DNA of 64,000 nt, taken from positions 31,630 to 95,629 of the forward strand of contig CAYZRE010000001.1 of assembly GCA_964479835.1 (NCBI GenBank). Reading direction: 5' to 3'. Below are positions 3,078 to 24,215 of this stretch, in pieces. The number at the start of each line of letters is the position of its first letter. The first letter of the stretch is position 1. This stretch comes from an uncultured Candidatus Saccharibacteria bacterium (GTDB lineage Bacteria > Patescibacteriota > Minisyncoccia > 2-02-FULL-40-12 > GWA2-44-9). Below the pieces are notes generated by a model, which made no database searches, had not been told where the DNA came from, and worked only from the letters and a program-made list of their open reading frames with translations. Position numbers and translations under genes: made by a program.

Positions 3078-3104
3078 ATAATAACATATCTACCTTCAAT
3101 ACGG

Positions 3105-3191
3105 CGGAGAGGGTGAGATTCGAACTCACGGGGCTCTTGCGAGCCCGGCGGTTTAGTAAACCGCTGCTTTAGACCGCTCAGCCACCTCTCC
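3105..3191 (-). tRNA. class II (long variable arm) Ser-type tRNA with apparent anticodon ACU (loop TTACTAA)
   Basis: Minus strand, 87 nt. Acceptor GGAGAGG/CCTCTCC, G73 discriminator, 3-bp D-stem with long D-loop. Anticodon stem GCGGT/ACCGC, loop TTACTAA. 18-nt variable arm hairpin GGGCTC-GCAA-GAGCCC. T-arm GTGAG-TTCGAAT-CTCAC. Confidence 0.6.
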
Positions 3192-3372: not shown

Positions 3373-3462
3373 GCGGAGACGGAAGGATTCGAACCTTCGG
3401 TTCGGTTTGACCCGAACACCTCTTTAGCAAAGAGGCTCATTAGACCACTCTGACACGTCTCC
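3373..3462 (-). tRNA. tRNA-Ser(GCT)
   Basis: Minus strand, 90 nt. Acceptor GGAGACG/CGTCTCC, G73. Anticodon arm CCTCT-TTGCTAA-AGAGG. 20-nt variable arm, T-arm GAAGG-TTCGAAT-CCTTC. Confidence 0.8.
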
Positions 3463-17890: not shown

Positions 17891-18499
17891 ATGATGTTCT
17901 ACGAAAATATTCCCACAATTGTCAACTCAACAGTGCAGGCGCTCTACCAGGGCGTGTATAGGCCCTGGGATATACTGTCTCCCGCGCGACTGTTTGATTT
18001 TGTACAGACAAACAACCAGGTTGCCAGTATCAAGGTGCTTCTGTCGCAGGTCTCACTGGTGCTGTCTGCGGTGTTTACGCTGTTTATTGTCTTTGTCATG
18101 ATGCAAAAGCGTGTGCTCAAGGCGCAACAGGAACCGACGACAACCACATCGTCCGCACGAGGCACCACAGAAGTGCCGGCCGGCATCCTGCGCAACCGAT
18201 GGAACGAGCTTTGTAAACATTTGGAGTCTACGCACGAAGCCCAATGGAAGATGGCAGTCATCGAAGCGGACAAACTGGTTGATGATGCGCTGGTAAAATC
18301 GGGATTCCCGGGGGATACTTTCGGCGACCGTTTGAGCAATATCCAGCCGGGTACATTACTATCGCTGGATGGTATTTGGTGGGCGCACAAGGTACGCAAT
18401 CGACTTGCGCACGAGGTCGACTATTTTTTGCGGTATACCGAAGCACGTCAGGCTATCGGATACTTCGAGGCCGCGCTCTCTGAACTAAAACTTATTTGA
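17891..18499 (+). CDS. hypothetical membrane protein (202 aa)
   Basis: One TM (VSLVLSAVFTLFIVFVMM), Thr-rich linker, C-terminal helical domain. Confidence 0.4.
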   Translation: MMFYENIPTIVNSTVQALYQGVYRPWDILSPARLFDFVQTNNQVASIKVLLSQVSLVLSAVFTLFIVFVMMQKRVLKAQQEPTTTTSSARGTTEVPAGILRNRWNELCKHLESTHEAQWKMAVIEADKLVDDALVKSGFPGDTFGDRLSNIQPGTLLSLDGIWWAHKVRNRLAHEVDYFLRYTEARQAIGYFEAALSELKLI

Positions 18500-20322
18500 C
18501 GATGTTCCGAATATTCCGCGCACAATCGCCGATGCACAGAGCCCTTATCGGGACAGCTGTTGTTGTGATTGCGATATTCATCGCATCGGGGGCAGACGCT
18601 TGGTATTTCTCAAATCGCATTGTGTCGCGGACGTGGGTTGGCAGTGTTGCGGTAGGCGGCATGACGCGCGACCGGGCTGCGGCAAGCATTCAGGAAGCGG
18701 TCGACACGCTCGATACTGAGGGCATCCTACTTTCCGTCGAAGGCTCACCAGAGGTCATTGTACCTGATAGTATCGCACTCGATCTGAATTTAAGCGAAGC
18801 AATCGATGGCGCGTTTCTGCGAGGGCATGAAGGAGGAGCACTGAAACAGACATGGCAGCGGGTGTCCGCGTTATGGTCACCGCAACATTTCGATGCGCCC
18901 GTGCGTATCGACGAAGGGGCTTTGCGTGTTCAGATTTCCGAAGTTGCCAATGCCACTGATTTTGAACGAAGTGATATCAGATTGCAGGTTATCGCTGCTA
19001 AGGTTGCGTTGTTGACCGACACGAAGCCCGGTCGCGCCATCGATCAGAATGAAACTTTCAATCTTATCCAAAACTCTCTGCGGAGACTGGACCATGAGCC
19101 GATTGTTCTGCAATTACATGATGATATACCCCGTGCCGACGCGGTAAAAGCGCAGTCAGCGGTGATGACCGCTCAAAAAATGATTTCTCGCTCACTATTA
19201 CTTCGGTACGAAGATATTCAGTTTTTCATCAGTCGCGAACGGCTTGGCTCATGGGTGATATCCGAATATGACGGTGACCAACTCAGACCGGGCCTGAATC
19301 GGGGAACAATCAGTATTTATGTGACGACTGTTGCCGATGCGCTTAATATTGCCTCGGAACCTCCGCAGATCACCACGCAGGACGGCCGCGTCACGGGATT
19401 CATGCCTTCGAAGGTCGGCCGTTCAGTGGAGGAAGACAAGCTGACGGATATGATTGTCGATGCGGTTACCGCCCGTATCGGAACCGATAAAGTCGGTGAC
19501 ACGCTCGTCGTCCCGCTGAAGTCAACCAGATTGGCACTTATCGGCTTGGACACAGCTTCGGGTATTACCGAGATTATCGGCAAGGCGACCACGACATTTG
19601 CCGGAAGCCCGAGGAACCGTATCTCCAACATCAAGAACGGGGTCAAATTCCTTTCCGGTGCGGTCATACAGCCGGGGGATGAATTCTCGGCCCTGGCGAC
19701 CCTGGGGACCATCGATAACACGACAGGTTACCTTCCCGAGTTGGTCATCAAAGGGGACCGTACAATCCCTGAATTCGGTGGGGGATTGTGTCAGGTATCA
19801 ACGACGCTCTTCCGCGCCGTCATGGATACCGGTCTCCCTATTACGGCACGGCGGAACCACAGCTTTCGCGTCTCGTACTACGAAAAAGACGGCAATGGGG
19901 TGTTTATCGGTCCCGGCCTGGACGCCACTATCTATGAACCGAATCCCGATTTCAAGTTCCGCAACGATATGAGCACACCCGTGCTCATCATTGGCTATGT
20001 CATCGGCGATAAGGTCTCGTTCGAGCTCTATGGCACGGGCGACGGGCGGACCAGTCAGATTATCGGTCCCACGCTGCTGACCACAATACCCGCAGGCGAG
20101 CCGGAATACATCGAAACACTCGACTTGGCACCCGGAGTGATTAAGCAGGTAGAGGTTCCGCACCCGGGCGGCTCCACGAAAGCGACCTACATTATTAAAT
20201 ATGCTGACGGCCGTACGGTGCCGCAGGAGTTCTTGAGCTGGTATCGTCGCTGGCCTGCCAAGTATCTCAAAGGGGTGGCAGTGTTGTCTTCTCCGACCCC
20301 GATCCCGACCCCTGCGCCGTAA
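18496..20322 (+). CDS. VanW domain-containing membrane-anchored protein
   Basis: N-terminal TM. VanW core FGGGLCQVSTTLFRAVMDTGLPI...RNHSF. C-terminal Pro/Thr tail PTPIPTPAP. Confidence 0.7.
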   Translation: MTMFRIFRAQSPMHRALIGTAVVVIAIFIASGADAWYFSNRIVSRTWVGSVAVGGMTRDRAAASIQEAVDTLDTEGILLSVEGSPEVIVPDSIALDLNLSEAIDGAFLRGHEGGALKQTWQRVSALWSPQHFDAPVRIDEGALRVQISEVANATDFERSDIRLQVIAAKVALLTDTKPGRAIDQNETFNLIQNSLRRLDHEPIVLQLHDDIPRADAVKAQSAVMTAQKMISRSLLLRYEDIQFFISRERLGSWVISEYDGDQLRPGLNRGTISIYVTTVADALNIASEPPQITTQDGRVTGFMPSKVGRSVEEDKLTDMIVDAVTARIGTDKVGDTLVVPLKSTRLALIGLDTASGITEIIGKATTTFAGSPRNRISNIKNGVKFLSGAVIQPGDEFSALATLGTIDNTTGYLPELVIKGDRTIPEFGGGLCQVSTTLFRAVMDTGLPITARRNHSFRVSYYEKDGNGVFIGPGLDATIYEPNPDFKFRNDMSTPVLIIGYVIGDKVSFELYGTGDGRTSQIIGPTLLTTIPAGEPEYIETLDLAPGVIKQVEVPHPGGSTKATYIIKYADGRTVPQEFLSWYRRWPAKYLKGVAVLSSPTPIPTPAP

Positions 20323-20334
20323 CCACCAAGAACT

Positions 20335-23300
20335 ATGTCCGATTTCAAGGAGCTTGAAGAGCGCATGCTCGCATTCTGGGAAGACAACGATGTCTTCCGA
20401 AAAAGCATGCATCAACACGAAGGACGGAAGCCATTCGTGTTCTTCGAGGGGCCGCCGACAGCCAACGGAAATCCCGGCATCCATCATGTCATCGCGCGCG
20501 TCTTCAAAGACCTCATCAGTCGCTACAAAACAATGCGCGGACACTTTGTATTGCGCAAAGGCGGATGGGATACCCATGGACTACCCGTTGAAATACAAGT
20601 CGAGAAAGAATTGGGATTCAAGAGCAAGAAAGATATCGAAGCGTACGGCATCGCCGCCTATAATGCCAAGTGTCGTCAGTCTGTATGGAAATTCAAGGAA
20701 GAGTGGGAGCGCTTCACGCGCCGCATTGGATACTGGGTAGACCTCCAGAATCCGTATGTGACCTATGAGAATCCGTACATCGAATCGCTCTGGAACATCA
20801 TCGGCCGCATCTGGGACAAGAAGCTACTCTATCAGGCGCACCGTGTCGTTCCATTCTGCACTCGCTGCGGTACGCCGTTGTCCAGTCATGAAGTCGCACA
20901 GGGCTATAAAACGGTCACGGACAATTCGGTGTATCTGAAGTTCAAAGTGAAGAGTTCCAAGCTCAAGCTTCCCAAGAATTCGTTCATTCTGGCATGGACC
21001 ACAACGCCGTGGACATTACCGGGCAACGTCGCACTCGCGGTTGGTCGCGACATCAACTATGTCCTCGCCACATCAAGCGGAGGAGACGAGCATTATATTA
21101 TTGCTGCTGACCTGGCCAATAAAGTACTGGGTGCGCCGCTTGCTATCGAACGCCAGTTCACGGGCCGTGAACTCATCGGCACTTCCTACCAGCCGTTATT
21201 TGCCGTCAAAGCTCTCAAAAAACCGAAGTCATACAAAGTGTATGAGGCCGATTTTGTTTCAACTACTGATGGCACGGGTGTCGTACACACAGCGGTTATG
21301 TACGGTGAGGACGATTATCAGCTGGGCACGAAGCTCGGACTAGTGAAACAGCACACCGTTGATGAACAGGGGAAATTCTTCGGTGTATCGAAAGAGTTGG
21401 ACGGAGCATATGTCAAAGCCGTGAGTACAGAAGCCATTATTCTGGATAAACTGAAAGCTGATAACGCATTACTCACGACTGCTCCCTTCGAGCATGAGTA
21501 TCCGTTTTGCTGGCGTTGTGATACTCCGCTGTTGTATTACGCGAAGGACAGCTGGTTCATCCGCATGAGCGCAATCAATGCTCAACTGCTTGCAAATAAC
21601 GATACGATTAACTGGGTTCCGGAACATCTCAAAGACGGGCGTTTCGGCCAGTGGCTTCGCGAAGGAAAGGATTGGGCGTTTTCTCGTGAGCGCTACTGGG
21701 GTACACCGCTTCCCATTTGGCAGGCCCGCGACAAGAAAGGCAAGGGGACCGGGCAGTGTCTGGTCGCTCACTCAATGGAAGACCTCGACACCTATCGCGG
21801 CGATAAGCCGGCTCACTTCTGGGTGATGCGCCACGGTGAAGCGCGCAAAAATGTGGACCATATCATCGACCAGGGCGAACTTGAGTCGCCGCTGACTGAT
21901 GTCGGCAGAGAGCAGGTAATCAGCGCGGCGCGGGCGCTCAAAAAACAATTATCTTCCGCGCGCACGAAATTGACCGCCGTCATCTCATCACCGATTCAGC
22001 GAACACTGGAGACGGCCGAGATTGCAGCGCAGGAGTTGGGCATAAAGACCATCGTTACCGATGAACGATTGCGCGAAATTAAACTCGGTCCGACACTGGC
22101 CGGATGTCATGACGGTAAGTACCACGAGCTCTACCCGACCTACGAGTCCAAGTTCACCCAGCAGCCGCCCGGGGGTGAGTCACTCGCCGATTTGAGGACC
22201 CGCATGTGGCAGATGCTTACGGAGCTGAACACGAAGTACTCCGGCAAAGATGTTTTGCTGGTCAGCCACGAATATCCCATCTGGATGATGACGGATGCAG
22301 CAAACGCGTGGAACAGGGAGCAGTCCATTACCGAGAAACAGAAACGCGGGAATGATTTTATCGGGTTTGCGTCCGTCGAGCAGCTGGTTGTGCGCAATCT
22401 ACCGCGCGACCCCGCAGGTATGCTGGACCTACACCGACCGTTCATCGACGATATTGTTCTGAAGTATCCCGATAGTTCTGCCAAGCTATATCGCGTGCCG
22501 GAAATTGCCGATGTGTGGTTCGATTCCGGTGCTATGCCCTATGCGCAGTGGCACTGGCCATTTGAGAATGAAAAAGTTTTCCAACAGCAGTTCCCGGCCG
22601 ATTTCATCTCCGAGGCCATCGATCAAACCCGCGGATGGTTCTACACGCTGTTGGCGGTCTCTACATTATTAGGTGACGGTGCACCGTACAAAAATGTACT
22701 GTCTCTGGGGCACATCTTAGATGAGAAGGGTCAGAAGATGTCAAAATCGAAAGGCAATATCGTCATGCCTGACGATGTATTCAGCGCGGTCGGCATTGAC
22801 GCAACGCGTTGGTATTTTTATACGGTAAATGCGCCGGGCGATACAAAGAATTTCTCCATGAAGGAGGTGCGCGAGCGTTTGACCGGTTTTATGATGACAC
22901 TCAACAACTGTCTGCGTTTCTATGAACTGTACCGAGCACAGCACGATACGATTCATCCGGAATTTTCCTCGGAGTCTTCTTCGAACTTGCTGGACAAGTG
23001 GATTGTGTCGCGACTGCGCGAGGTTACCGTGCTGGCGACTGCGCGACTGGACACCTACGATATTACCGTGGCTGCCCGCGAGCTGGAGCGATTCGTCGTA
23101 GACGATTTTAGTCAGTGGTGGCTTCGTCGCAGTCGCAAGCGCAGCGATGCTCTGCCGTTGCTGAGGCATATCCTGCGCTCGTTATCACTACTTCTCGCCC
23201 CGTTTATTCCGTACACAGCCGAGGAGCTGTGGCAGAAGCTCAAGTCGGAAGGGGACCCTCTCTCGGTACACCTTGCCGATTGGCCCGCCACCGGCGACAA

Positions 23301-23811
23301 GACGGCGATTGATGTGCAACTACACCAACAGATGATGCAGGTACGCGAGTACATCAGTGCCGGACTTGCGGCACGCAAAGAAAATCAGATTAAAGTCCGC
23401 CAACCTCTGCAATCAGTGACCGTCCCGGGCAAAAAATTGCACAATGACTTGGAAGATCTTATCCGTGATGAACTCAATGTGAAAGAAGTGAAATATGAAC
23501 CCGGTGCCGCAATTATGCTCGATGTGCACATTGGTACGCAATTGCGCGCGGAAGGATTCGCGCGTGAAGTGATGCGTACCGTGCAGGATATGCGCAAGGA
23601 ATTAGGCTGTCAGGTGACCGACCGCGTGTACTGCCAATGGTTTAGTGAGGATGCAGAAGTCAGCGCTGCGCTTCTTCAGCACGGCGACATGATTGCCCGC
23701 GAGACGGGCCTGTCGGCATTCGTGCATCAGGCCGACGATAAGACGCTTACCATTGAGAAAAACTTCGAGCTTGCTCTCGGTAAAGCTCTTTGGATTGGTA
23801 TCCGAAAATAA
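20335..23811 (+). CDS. ileS: isoleucyl-tRNA synthetase with embedded histidine-phosphatase (PGM-like) domain
   Basis: HIGH variant PPTANGNPGIHHV, KMSKS (KMSKSKGN), WCxRC, GTPLPIW, DVWFDSG. About 250-aa insert carrying RHGE...SPLT...VSHE histidine-phosphatase motifs between GTPLPIW and DVWFDSG. Confidence 0.9.
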   Translation: MSDFKELEERMLAFWEDNDVFRKSMHQHEGRKPFVFFEGPPTANGNPGIHHVIARVFKDLISRYKTMRGHFVLRKGGWDTHGLPVEIQVEKELGFKSKKDIEAYGIAAYNAKCRQSVWKFKEEWERFTRRIGYWVDLQNPYVTYENPYIESLWNIIGRIWDKKLLYQAHRVVPFCTRCGTPLSSHEVAQGYKTVTDNSVYLKFKVKSSKLKLPKNSFILAWTTTPWTLPGNVALAVGRDINYVLATSSGGDEHYIIAADLANKVLGAPLAIERQFTGRELIGTSYQPLFAVKALKKPKSYKVYEADFVSTTDGTGVVHTAVMYGEDDYQLGTKLGLVKQHTVDEQGKFFGVSKELDGAYVKAVSTEAIILDKLKADNALLTTAPFEHEYPFCWRCDTPLLYYAKDSWFIRMSAINAQLLANNDTINWVPEHLKDGRFGQWLREGKDWAFSRERYWGTPLPIWQARDKKGKGTGQCLVAHSMEDLDTYRGDKPAHFWVMRHGEARKNVDHIIDQGELESPLTDVGREQVISAARALKKQLSSARTKLTAVISSPIQRTLETAEIAAQELGIKTIVTDERLREIKLGPTLAGCHDGKYHELYPTYESKFTQQPPGGESLADLRTRMWQMLTELNTKYSGKDVLLVSHEYPIWMMTDAANAWNREQSITEKQKRGNDFIGFASVEQLVVRNLPRDPAGMLDLHRPFIDDIVLKYPDSSAKLYRVPEIADVWFDSGAMPYAQWHWPFENEKVFQQQFPADFISEAIDQTRGWFYTLLAVSTLLGDGAPYKNVLSLGHILDEKGQKMSKSKGNIVMPDDVFSAVGIDATRWYFYTVNAPGDTKNFSMKEVRERLTGFMMTLNNCLRFYELYRAQHDTIHPEFSSESSSNLLDKWIVSRLREVTVLATARLDTYDITVAARELERFVVDDFSQWWLRRSRKRSDALPLLRHILRSLSLLLAPFIPYTAEELWQKLKSEGDPLSVHLADWPATGDKTAIDVQLHQQMMQVREYISAGLAARKENQIKVRQPLQSVTVPGKKLHNDLEDLIRDELNVKEVKYEPGAAIMLDVHIGTQLRAEGFAREVMRTVQDMRKELGCQVTDRVYCQWFSEDAEVSAALLQHGDMIARETGLSAFVHQADDKTLTIEKNFELALGKALWIGIRK

Positions 23812-23813
23812 CT

Positions 23814-24215
23814 ATGACACTAGGCTGGATTTTTCGTTCTGTTTACCGACAGCGGCCATCCGTGGCGCGTGTCCAGTACCTGCGCCATCGGGAAGGTGCT
23901 CGCGAGTTCATTGCGGCGCGTATTGCGTACTGGCAGAGTGTGCAATTATTCGCGGTTGAGCGGGTGAGCATCAAAAATCACAGCCGTATCTGGGGCAGTT
24001 GTTCAAGTCTCGGCAACCTAAATTTTAACTGGCGACTCGTGCATCTTCCGGTAGAGCTTGCCGATTATGTTGTCGTGCACGAATTGTGCCATACCATTGA
24101 ACATAACCACTCGCGCAGCTTCTGGGCGCTTGTGGAAGCTCTGATGCCCGACTGGCGTGTCCGTCGCGCGGCCCTGCGTCACCATCACCCGATGAGTTCA
24201 GTCTATGCCATATAA
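23814..24215 (+). CDS. DUF45/YgjP-like metal-dependent hydrolase (HExxH)
   Basis: HELCHTIEHNHS motif. Start 3 nt after the ileS stop. Confidence 0.5.
   Translation: MTLGWIFRSVYRQRPSVARVQYLRHREGAREFIAARIAYWQSVQLFAVERVSIKNHSRIWGSCSSLGNLNFNWRLVHLPVELADYVVVHELCHTIEHNHSRSFWALVEALMPDWRVRRAALRHHHPMSSVYAI

Follow-up and report, generated by a model that had tools for sequence, protein, structure and literature searches.

The DNA analysed here, a stretch of 64,000 nucleotides from contig CAYZRE010000001.1 of an uncultured Candidatus Saccharibacteria bacterium (hereafter the window), carries on its forward strand an ileS gene whose uninterrupted open reading frame (ORF; 20335-23811, 1158 residues) encodes an isoleucyl-tRNA synthetase (IleRS) with a histidine-phosphatase domain nested inside its catalytic part. 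The features of this gene are as follows, in window coordinates.

20335..23811, forward strand: ileS, type-2 (eukaryote/archaeal-like) IleRS with the inserted phosphatase domain, from the ORF, TIGR00392 and the match to structure 8C8V
20476..20487, forward strand: class I signature in the non-canonical form G48-I-H-H51 (GXHH, not HXGH)
20935..21504, forward strand: CP1 editing domain, with the first zinc site on either side of it (C175/C178, C392/C395), from cysteine positions
21721..21792, forward strand: N-terminal remnant of the CP3 knuckle (QARDKKGKGTGQCLVAHSMEDL); CxxC pair lost, single cysteine C475
21793..22410, forward strand: inserted His_Phos_1 (PhoE/PspA-like) domain, residues 487-692 (about 205 residues), from alignment with insert-free IleRS2
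21829..21837, forward strand: R499-H500-G501, phosphate-binding Arg and putative nucleophilic His; R and H invariant in 119/119 proteins and 113/113 domain copies
22000..22002, forward strand: R556, second phosphate-binding Arg (SSPxxR motif), invariant
22075..22077, forward strand: E581 of the LRE motif, putative general acid; without variation in the embedded family, E or D in 113/113 copies
22267..22269, forward strand: H645, second catalytic His, in the subfamily motif SH(G/E)xP(I/L)W, invariant
22411..22509, forward strand: C-terminal remnant of the CP3 knuckle (…LDLHRPFIDDIVLKYPDSSAKLYRVPEIA); second cysteine pair lost, no cysteine
22510..22530, forward strand: DVWFDSG strand, where the second Rossmann half resumes; D726, W728, D730, S731 and G732 invariant
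22735..22749, forward strand: KMSKS loop; K801, S803 and K804 invariant
22993..23754, forward strand: anticodon-binding domain and type-2 C-terminal domains (Anticodon_1, DUF5915), from Pfam

The original prediction, made from the sequence alone, had placed such a phosphatase domain in frame within an otherwise intact IleRS, and profile searches bear this out: the protein scores 841.9 bits against the NCBIfam equivalog model for ileS (TIGR00392, cutoff 621.4), and Pfam finds tRNA-synt_1 in two stretches, His_Phos_1 at residues 496-661 (the domain had been expected at about 490-650), Anticodon_1 at 887-1027 and DUF5915 at 999-1140. The FCWRC (residue 391), GTPLPIW (456), DVWFDSG (726) and KMSKS (801) motifs are in place as had been claimed, when the supposed HIGH motif in fact reads GIHH, so that the class I signatures consist of a G/AXHH form together with K801-MSKS. 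Across the insert-bearing family this signature is GxHH in 69/119 proteins, HxGH in 39/119 and AxHH in 10/119. GXHH is a functional variant of IleRS2 that was experimentally shown to confer mupirocin hyper-resistance (PMC10485003), and its occurrence in the window protein and its family suggests past exposure of such bacteria to IleRS-targeting antibiotics. The CP1 editing site is conserved, with W221-TTT-PWT-LPGN (TTTPWT at 222-227), G313/G315/H318 and D327 invariant in 101 sequences and a fold that agrees with IleRS2 structures; the first zinc site is intact, and the C-terminal organisation is that of type 2, with anticodon-binding and ARD-type domains and no C-terminal zinc-binding domain. 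The protein thus belongs to the same family as the IleRS2 of Priestia megaterium (8C8V) and Thermus thermophilus (1ILE) and shares their order of Rossmann fold, CP1, CP2/CP3, KMSKS, anticodon-binding and type-2 C-terminal domains, the P. megaterium enzyme being its best solved match (TM score 0.83, 34% identity). It falls outside the MupA/MupB group (754 and 720 bits for NF000257 and NF000258, cutoff 1900) and is not the IleRS with an N-acetyltransferase domain (NF040702; 308.6 bits vs 1999, GNAT domain not matched). The window holds one class Ia synthetase and one His_Phos domain; a second IleRS, a second His_Phos domain and argS were looked for in it and none was found. With its motifs intact and as the only class Ia gene of the window, the ileS product probably activates isoleucine and charges tRNAIle. 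The public gene call for this protein (P0121) is 1148 residues long and starts 10 codons downstream (20365), but 20335 is the likelier start because the upstream Met (MSDFKELEER) is where the alignment with the two closest homologues begins.

Alignment with insert-free IleRS2 locates the insertion precisely. The normal order there is WGTPLPxW-CxxC-…IGSxxEL-(about 15 residues)-DLHRPYxD-…CxxC…-DVWFDSG, and in the window protein the phosphatase separates the "EL" and "DLHRP" halves of this four-cysteine zinc knuckle, which is named CP3 in the nomenclature of PMC11685878 and directly precedes the strand on which the Rossmann fold resumes. The insert runs on beyond the Pfam match into a C-terminal tail made of a helix and a beta-hairpin (residues 662-692), and it lies within the interval first proposed for it (21780-22500, residues 482-722). 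The distance from GTPLPIW to DVWFDSG is 270 residues rather than the roughly 290 originally estimated, and the contrast that had been drawn holds, since other insert-bearing relatives span 251-289 residues and insert-free type-2 enzymes 57-72. The first CxxC of the knuckle is kept in 81/119 relatives and the second cysteine pair in 79/119; the subclade of the window protein has lost the whole four-cysteine site.

This architecture is a true domain insertion, as had been argued. The same protein, residue for residue and between the same neighbours, is found in an independent Logan assembly (run SRR6868923), and in all of the best 120 full-length homologues (51-100% identity) PF00300 lies at the same place inside a type-2 IleRS; where the source gives names, these come from Candidatus Yanofskybacteria, Paceibacterota or Patescibacteria. 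A junction-spanning query added about 30 fragment proteins that combine PF00133 with PF00300. The embedded arrangement is therefore typical of a large Patescibacterial clade and not peculiar to the window genome, and we have very little doubt about the architecture or about the identity of the gene, which we take to be the housekeeping type-2 ileS of a Patescibacterium related to Yanofskybacteria/Paceibacterota.

Several features mark the insert as a probable working enzyme. It matches His_Phos_1 (PF00300) with E=7e-33 (114.4 bits vs a cutoff of 21.7), and its RHG (residue 499), SSPIQR (551), LREIKLG (579) and VSHE (643) motifs supply the catalytic core of branch 1 of the histidine phosphatases: the His of RHG, two Arg, an acidic donor and a second His. 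The catalytic His, Arg and Glu residues cited at the outset are invariant in the aligned family, where R499, H500, S552, R556, E581, R623 and H645 do not vary across 119 proteins, although mean identity to the window sequence is 39% in the insert and 63-71% in segments of the IleRS core. The R-H-R-(E/D)-H pentad is likewise intact in 113/113 domain copies drawn from every architecture we met (embedded, free-standing, tandem, at alternative sites, in a four-copy array, and fused to TsaC or RNase H). That catalytic residues are so strictly kept in every copy indicates that activity, and not the fold alone, is under selection. Comparison of coding sequences with the two closest homologues shows purifying selection on the insert, with a ratio of nonsynonymous to synonymous substitution rates (dN/dS) of about 0.07-0.13, against about 0.05-0.06 in the core, both approximate because dS is near saturation. 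Judging from its sequence, the insert is likely a catalytically competent phosphatase.

Structure prediction, which had been proposed as a check on whether the domain forms an independent lobe, yields a confident, well-folded separate domain with the alpha/beta fold of the superfamily. For the whole protein AlphaFold2 gives a mean predicted local distance difference test score (pLDDT) of 90.1 and a predicted template-modelling score (pTM) of 0.82, with pLDDT 92-97 over the insert and its linkers; modelled alone, the insert reaches pLDDT 94.0 and pTM 0.91. Its structural matches, with their scores, are:

PspA (4IJ5): 21.1
GpgP / "hydrolase 1" (6S2Q): 19.9
PhoE (1H2E): 19.7
riboflavin-pathway HFP (9MMH): 19.5
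CobC (6E4B): 18.5
SixA (protein phosphatase): 14.6
PGAM5 (protein phosphatase): 14.4
Sts-2 (protein phosphatase): 13.6

The modelled fold is thus nearest to small-molecule phosphatases (PspA, GpgP, PhoE) and not to true mutases or protein phosphatases, and by sequence the nearest solved protein is again PhoE (E=1.5e-12). The description of the domain as phosphoglycerate mutase-like accordingly stands at the level of the superfamily and fails for the mutase itself: scores for phosphoglycerate mutase proper (dPGM) fall far short (dPGM_arch 78.9 bits vs 225, GpmB 53.5 vs 261), TIGR01258 pgm_1 is not among the best 25 of the 31 families matched by the window protein, and the acid-residue motif LREIxLG is of the phosphatase type, unlike that of dPGM, which we take to be ERHYG. 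The insert also misses the cutoffs for the alpha-ribazole phosphatase CobC (TIGR03162, 61.6 bits vs 162.9), for the phosphoserine phosphatase PspA (NF045917) and for the bifunctional RNase H/acid phosphatase (PRK07238, 95.9 bits vs 326, no RNase H domain). Since all these curated cutoffs are missed, the insert is best placed as a small-molecule-type branch-1 phosphatase outside the characterised subfamilies. It shares only 18-30% identity with PhoE/YhfR (1H2E), PspA (4IJ5), Rv2419c GpgP (4QIH/6S2Q) and CobC (6E4B), from which it also differs in its own SH(G/E)xP(I/L)W motif and its hairpin tail, both of them confined to the ileS-linked clade described below, and in being embedded in, or coupled to, IleRS. 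Neither the insert nor its free relatives match any defence-system model in PADLOC.

The relatives of the insert lead back to ileS even where they are not part of it. An exhaustive profile-free search with the insert returned 394 cluster representatives at E≤1e-10, and 89 of the best 146 relatives carry IleRS motifs; a word-indexed search with the insert alone gave weak PhoE-like matches (best E 1e-14). The closest small free-standing relatives, which have the SH(G/E)xP(I/L)W motif in common with the insert, are His_Phos genes of 186-188 codons lying between argS and an insert-free type-2 ileS, one of them stopping 2 bp before ileS. Translation genes near this free-standing unit comprise argS, smpB, infC, rplT and ribosomal protein genes. 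The order argS, small His_Phos gene, ileS recurs in many Patescibacteria (L005:5428-10436, L006, L003, L007-L086), stop and start codons often overlapping, and an assembly of ArgRS, phosphatase and IleRS is conceivable. Many of these loci (L012, L014, L015, L017 and others) come from species-representative metagenome-assembled genomes (MAGs) titled "uncultured Candidatus Saccharibacteria bacterium"; they share the order, group with Staskawicz-/Nealsonbacteria-type IleRS in a rough tree, and the label looks like a generic placeholder.

To see how general the linkage is, we used an alignment of six free-standing proteins of small size, together with patterns built from phosphatase residues only, to scan a single genome for each species. 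The scan yielded 215 relatives, and the locus counts given here cover the best 80 of these 215. All 80 lie in Patescibacterial MAGs (Staskawicz-, Nealson-, Portnoy-, Uhr-, Taylor- and Moranbacteria, Paceibacterota, Parcubacteria and many generically labelled ones), with identities to the seed of 32-65% across several candidate-phylum-level groups. The phosphatase was found in the following states.

Separate ORF directly upstream of ileS on the same strand: 52 loci (41 with a gap of at most 190 bp)
Embedded in frame between the IleRS halves: 27 loci
Between the IleRS halves, below threshold: 1 locus

It is thus tied to ileS in 80/80 loci, and no free copy accompanies an embedded one at any of the embedded loci among them. 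Where enough upstream sequence is available, argS directly precedes the unit at 39/43 free and 11/20 embedded loci. The window domain has the features of this ileS-linked clade, namely the SH(G/E)xP(I/L)W motif, the C-terminal hairpin tail and adjacency to or insertion in ileS, and a rough neighbour-joining tree places it within the clade and apart from PhoE-like outgroups. On its sequence and the gene order of its relatives, the window insert reads as the in-cis form of the small phosphatase gene that sister lineages keep separate between argS and ileS. Free and embedded states are intermixed on rough neighbour-joining trees of both the IleRS backbone and the domain, a pattern that suggests that the unit has changed more than once between in-trans and in-cis forms. 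Both trees, though of low resolution, set the ileS-linked clade as a whole apart from PhoE-like outgroups. A simple N-terminal read-through fusion, the easiest to make, is absent from the 52 adjacent gene pairs, which suggests that a position within the catalytic half matters. One more distant free-standing relative, P0254 (220 residues; ENA ERZ27297570, 2.3 kb), overlaps the start of a TIR-domain gene and has a DUF4258 gene downstream on the opposite strand, a setting more like that of conflict systems than of translation; the contigs of P0252 and P0254 are too short for informative gene context.

The CP3 knuckle is not the only part of IleRS to have received the domain. The following variants also pass the ileS cutoff.

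Tandem pair at the CP3 site: P0322, P0364
One copy in the segment from DxWFDSG to KMSKS: P0266, P0382
One copy past KMSKS and the stem-contact region, ahead of the anticodon-binding domain: P0338, P0382, P0366
Four tandem copies: P0247

Protein P0382 (listed among the variants at L088:8001-12260) has no insert in CP3, and its neighbours (PurA, DAHP synthase, POR, SufBD and an SLH protein) do not look Patescibacterial in gene content. The domain is thus seen at three insertion sites in total, all grouped around KMSKS in the latter half of the catalytic domain. Other fusions occur among the relatives: P0359 and P0384 are fused to RNase H, and P0375 (L087:977-2140) joins a Sua5/YciO/YrdC domain (TsaC, the threonylcarbamoyl-AMP synthase of the t6A37 pathway) to a His_Phos domain with 33% identity to the insert. 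The latter is suggestive, if a single representative, since TsaC is another amino-acid-adenylate-forming enzyme serving ANN-decoding tRNAs. A candidate ArgRS-phosphatase fusion, P0370, proved to be another IleRS fragment.

Adjacency, the mutual replacement of free and fused forms and repeated fusion at several positions together compose a Rosetta-stone signature of joint action, and the linkage or embedding at all 80 loci points to a dedicated partner of IleRS, here held in cis. On this basis, we regard a genuine functional partnership between the phosphatase and IleRS as fairly probable. The explanation we favour overall, to which we give about an even chance, is that of a fused in-cis unit in which the phosphatase acts beside the synthetic half. 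Phosphatase and IleRS would form a two-component unit, built in trans or in cis; the domain would be a phosphomonoesterase in which His500 serves as nucleophile, Arg499 and Arg556 hold the phosphate and Glu581 acts as the acid, together with His645. Held beside the synthetic half of IleRS, it may dephosphorylate a small ligand, probably nucleotide-like, that is linked to the chemistry of the adenylate or of the acceptor end. By-products of the reaction are candidates, as are phosphorylated tRNA or nucleotide species that cannot be charged; taking off the phosphate would keep isoleucylation running. The insertion sites around KMSKS are compatible with action at the ATP, adenylate or acceptor-end side; as to any specific substrate, a given candidate would be a doubtful guess.

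Several observations weigh against this partnership. The 80 loci are the best-scoring relatives of a single ileS-adjacent seed, so that their synteny partly reflects shared ancestry, and more distant PhoE-like relatives in other phyla are not linked to ileS. The trees were built by neighbour-joining on divergent sequences. The three insertion sites are variable surface loops that are perhaps merely permissive, and tethering would fit them as well as geometric coupling. The domain is near-neutral to acidic (median pI 6.8, net charge -1), a charge that also argues against a generic RNA-binding module, and its nearest solved relatives act on metabolites unrelated to translation. Finally, we know of no chemistry that would make a phosphomonoesterase useful to IleRS specifically rather than to all synthetases.

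These points feed the main rival explanation, which we judge unlikely and which is nonetheless the most serious: the domain would be a hitch-hiking metabolic phosphatase (of phosphoserine, sugar-phosphate or phosphoglycerate type, for instance) whose chemistry has nothing to do with isoleucylation. Its position in an argS-ileS operon would be a historical accident, followed by repeated capture into permissive IleRS loops, and IleRS, essential and steadily expressed, would be no more than a carrier through which expression and stoichiometry are assured in tiny genomes. Metabolic phosphatases do indeed make up all of the closest folds and sequences, the domain is not basic, gene proximity favours capture, the three sites lie in variable loops (including a low-confidence one at about residues 871-880), two to four tandem copies fit an increase in dose or sub-functionalisation better than a precisely docked partner, and the same branch of the superfamily is also fused to RNase H without an established functional link. 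Such a history is, however, hard to reconcile with a linkage that holds at 80/80 loci over lineages as deeply diverged as 32-65% identity to the seed, with free and embedded forms that replace each other and never co-occur, or with internal insertions that recur when the easiest end-to-end fusion is never seen; an apparently unrelated lineage has moreover gained the domain in its IleRS at other sites, and no curated cutoff for known metabolic phosphatases is reached.

If the phosphatase does serve translation, it might heal the acceptor end of tRNA, by removing a 2'- or 3'-terminal phosphate (or a pyrophosphorylated CCA-end phosphate) from tRNAIle before charging. Toxin systems offer known cases of charging blocked by a phosphate or pyrophosphate at the tRNA 3' end, the domain is inserted at sites around KMSKS in the second catalytic half, the neighbourhood is rich in translation genes (argS, smpB, infC, ribosomal protein genes), and related domains occur in fusion with RNase H and with the tRNA-modifying TsaC. 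Even so, we consider this quite improbable: the domain is not basic and has no nucleic-acid-binding features, the nearest structures bind small metabolites, no defence-system model is matched, damage to the CCA end would affect all tRNAs and not tRNAIle alone, and to our knowledge no member of this branch acts on RNA ends.

A cis-acting protein phosphatase, which would reverse the phosphorylation of a partner or of IleRS itself (at a Ser of the KMSKS loop or close to it, for instance), serving either regulation or protection from kinases of the HipA/HipT type, by which class I synthetases are inactivated, appears very improbable in view of the fold comparison above. In its favour, the KMSKS-type loops of GltX and TrpS are known targets of kinase toxins, the three insertion sites all border the KMSKS loop in the sequence, and the superfamily includes PGAM5, Sts and SixA. 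Still less probability attaches to a non-catalytic structural module that would replace or stabilise the CP3 zinc knuckle or offer a docking surface (for ArgRS, for instance), its chemistry being irrelevant: the domain does sit in the knuckle, whose cysteines the window subclade lacks, and its free-standing gene is sandwiched between argS and ileS in the operon, but the pentad persists in 113/113 copies against a divergence of the remaining domain to about 30-40% identity, and most family members retain both the knuckle cysteines and the domain. An artificial join of ileS to a distinct phosphatase gene, made in assembly or annotation, has next to no probability, for it has nothing in its favour except the unusual architecture and is already refuted by IleRS sequence in a single frame on both sides of the insert, by the same protein in the SRR6868923 assembly and by the common architecture of more than 120 homologues from many samples and assemblers.

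Returning to the partnership of phosphatase and synthetase, the arrangement has partial parallels among known systems. No solved or characterised IleRS carries an enzyme domain of about 205 residues in CP3, solved chains being at most 1061 residues long, and the window protein further differs from 8C8V and 1ILE in its lost knuckle cysteines. The RNase H/acid phosphatase of the Rv2228c type (PRK07238), whose model is the best-scoring NCBIfam phosphatase model for the insert, is also a branch-1 histidine phosphatase fused to a nucleic-acid enzyme, but it is an end-to-end fusion to RNase H, when the insert is internal and lies in a synthetase. IleRS-GNAT (NF040702) and MetRS-aminotransferase are likewise class I synthetases with a second catalytic domain; in the present case the second enzyme is a phosphatase and is nested in the catalytic core rather than terminal. 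We know of no obvious phosphorylated isoleucine precursor. In Mycoplasma penetrans, the aminotransferase appended to the N-terminus of MetRS supplies the amino-acid substrate (PMC7694997). A full-text literature search found no account of an IleRS with a nested histidine phosphatase or of an argS-phosphatase-ileS unit, and the arrangement is absent from recent papers on IleRS2 evolution and structure (including PMC10485003). The sequences themselves are not new, as such proteins have been in public databases for years under the labels "class I tRNA ligase family protein" or, in UniRef, "Isoleucine-tRNA ligase [Candidatus Yanofskybacteria…]"; the feature is apparently undescribed.

The remainder of the window reads as ordinary chromosome (GatA, LigA, GyrB, DnaE and VanW-like genes). 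Packing around ileS is very tight and on one strand: the VanW-like gene (18496-20322) stops 12 nt before ileS, and the longest version of a YgjP-like metallopeptidase ORF (23790-24215) shares 22 nt with the 3' end of ileS. Elsewhere, ARAGORN calls a tRNA-Ser with anticodon ACT (A34) at 3103-3191, adjoining a tRNA-Ser(GCT) at 3373-3462; an unmodified A34 serine tRNA would be unusual, and the ACT call could be an error of prediction or a genuine peculiarity.

Few enzymes are as well studied as the aminoacyl-tRNA synthetases. Domains appended to them have time and again uncovered new biology, including editing, the binding of tRNA, the supply of substrate and signalling. In the present case, the catalytic core of an essential synthetase encloses a further enzyme that is apparently active, across part of a major uncultured radiation. 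As no isoleucylation step known to us needs a phosphomonoesterase, this points either to an unrecognised phosphate-dependent step or quality control in the translation of these minimal cells, or to the use of IleRS as a chassis for metabolic enzymes. In its boldest form, which we advance tentatively and hold to be rather less probable than not, the phosphatase would be an obligate catalytic partner of IleRS (possibly in an ArgRS-phosphatase-IleRS assembly) across much of the Patescibacteria, performing a new phosphate-removal step coupled to isoleucylation, be it that a by-product or phosphorylated nucleotide is cleared at the synthetic site or that a phosphorylated tRNAIle end is un-blocked. 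If true, such an obligate partnership would add a hitherto unseen accessory activity to the synthesis of aminoacyl-tRNA, set up on several occasions and in several places, either in trans or in cis.

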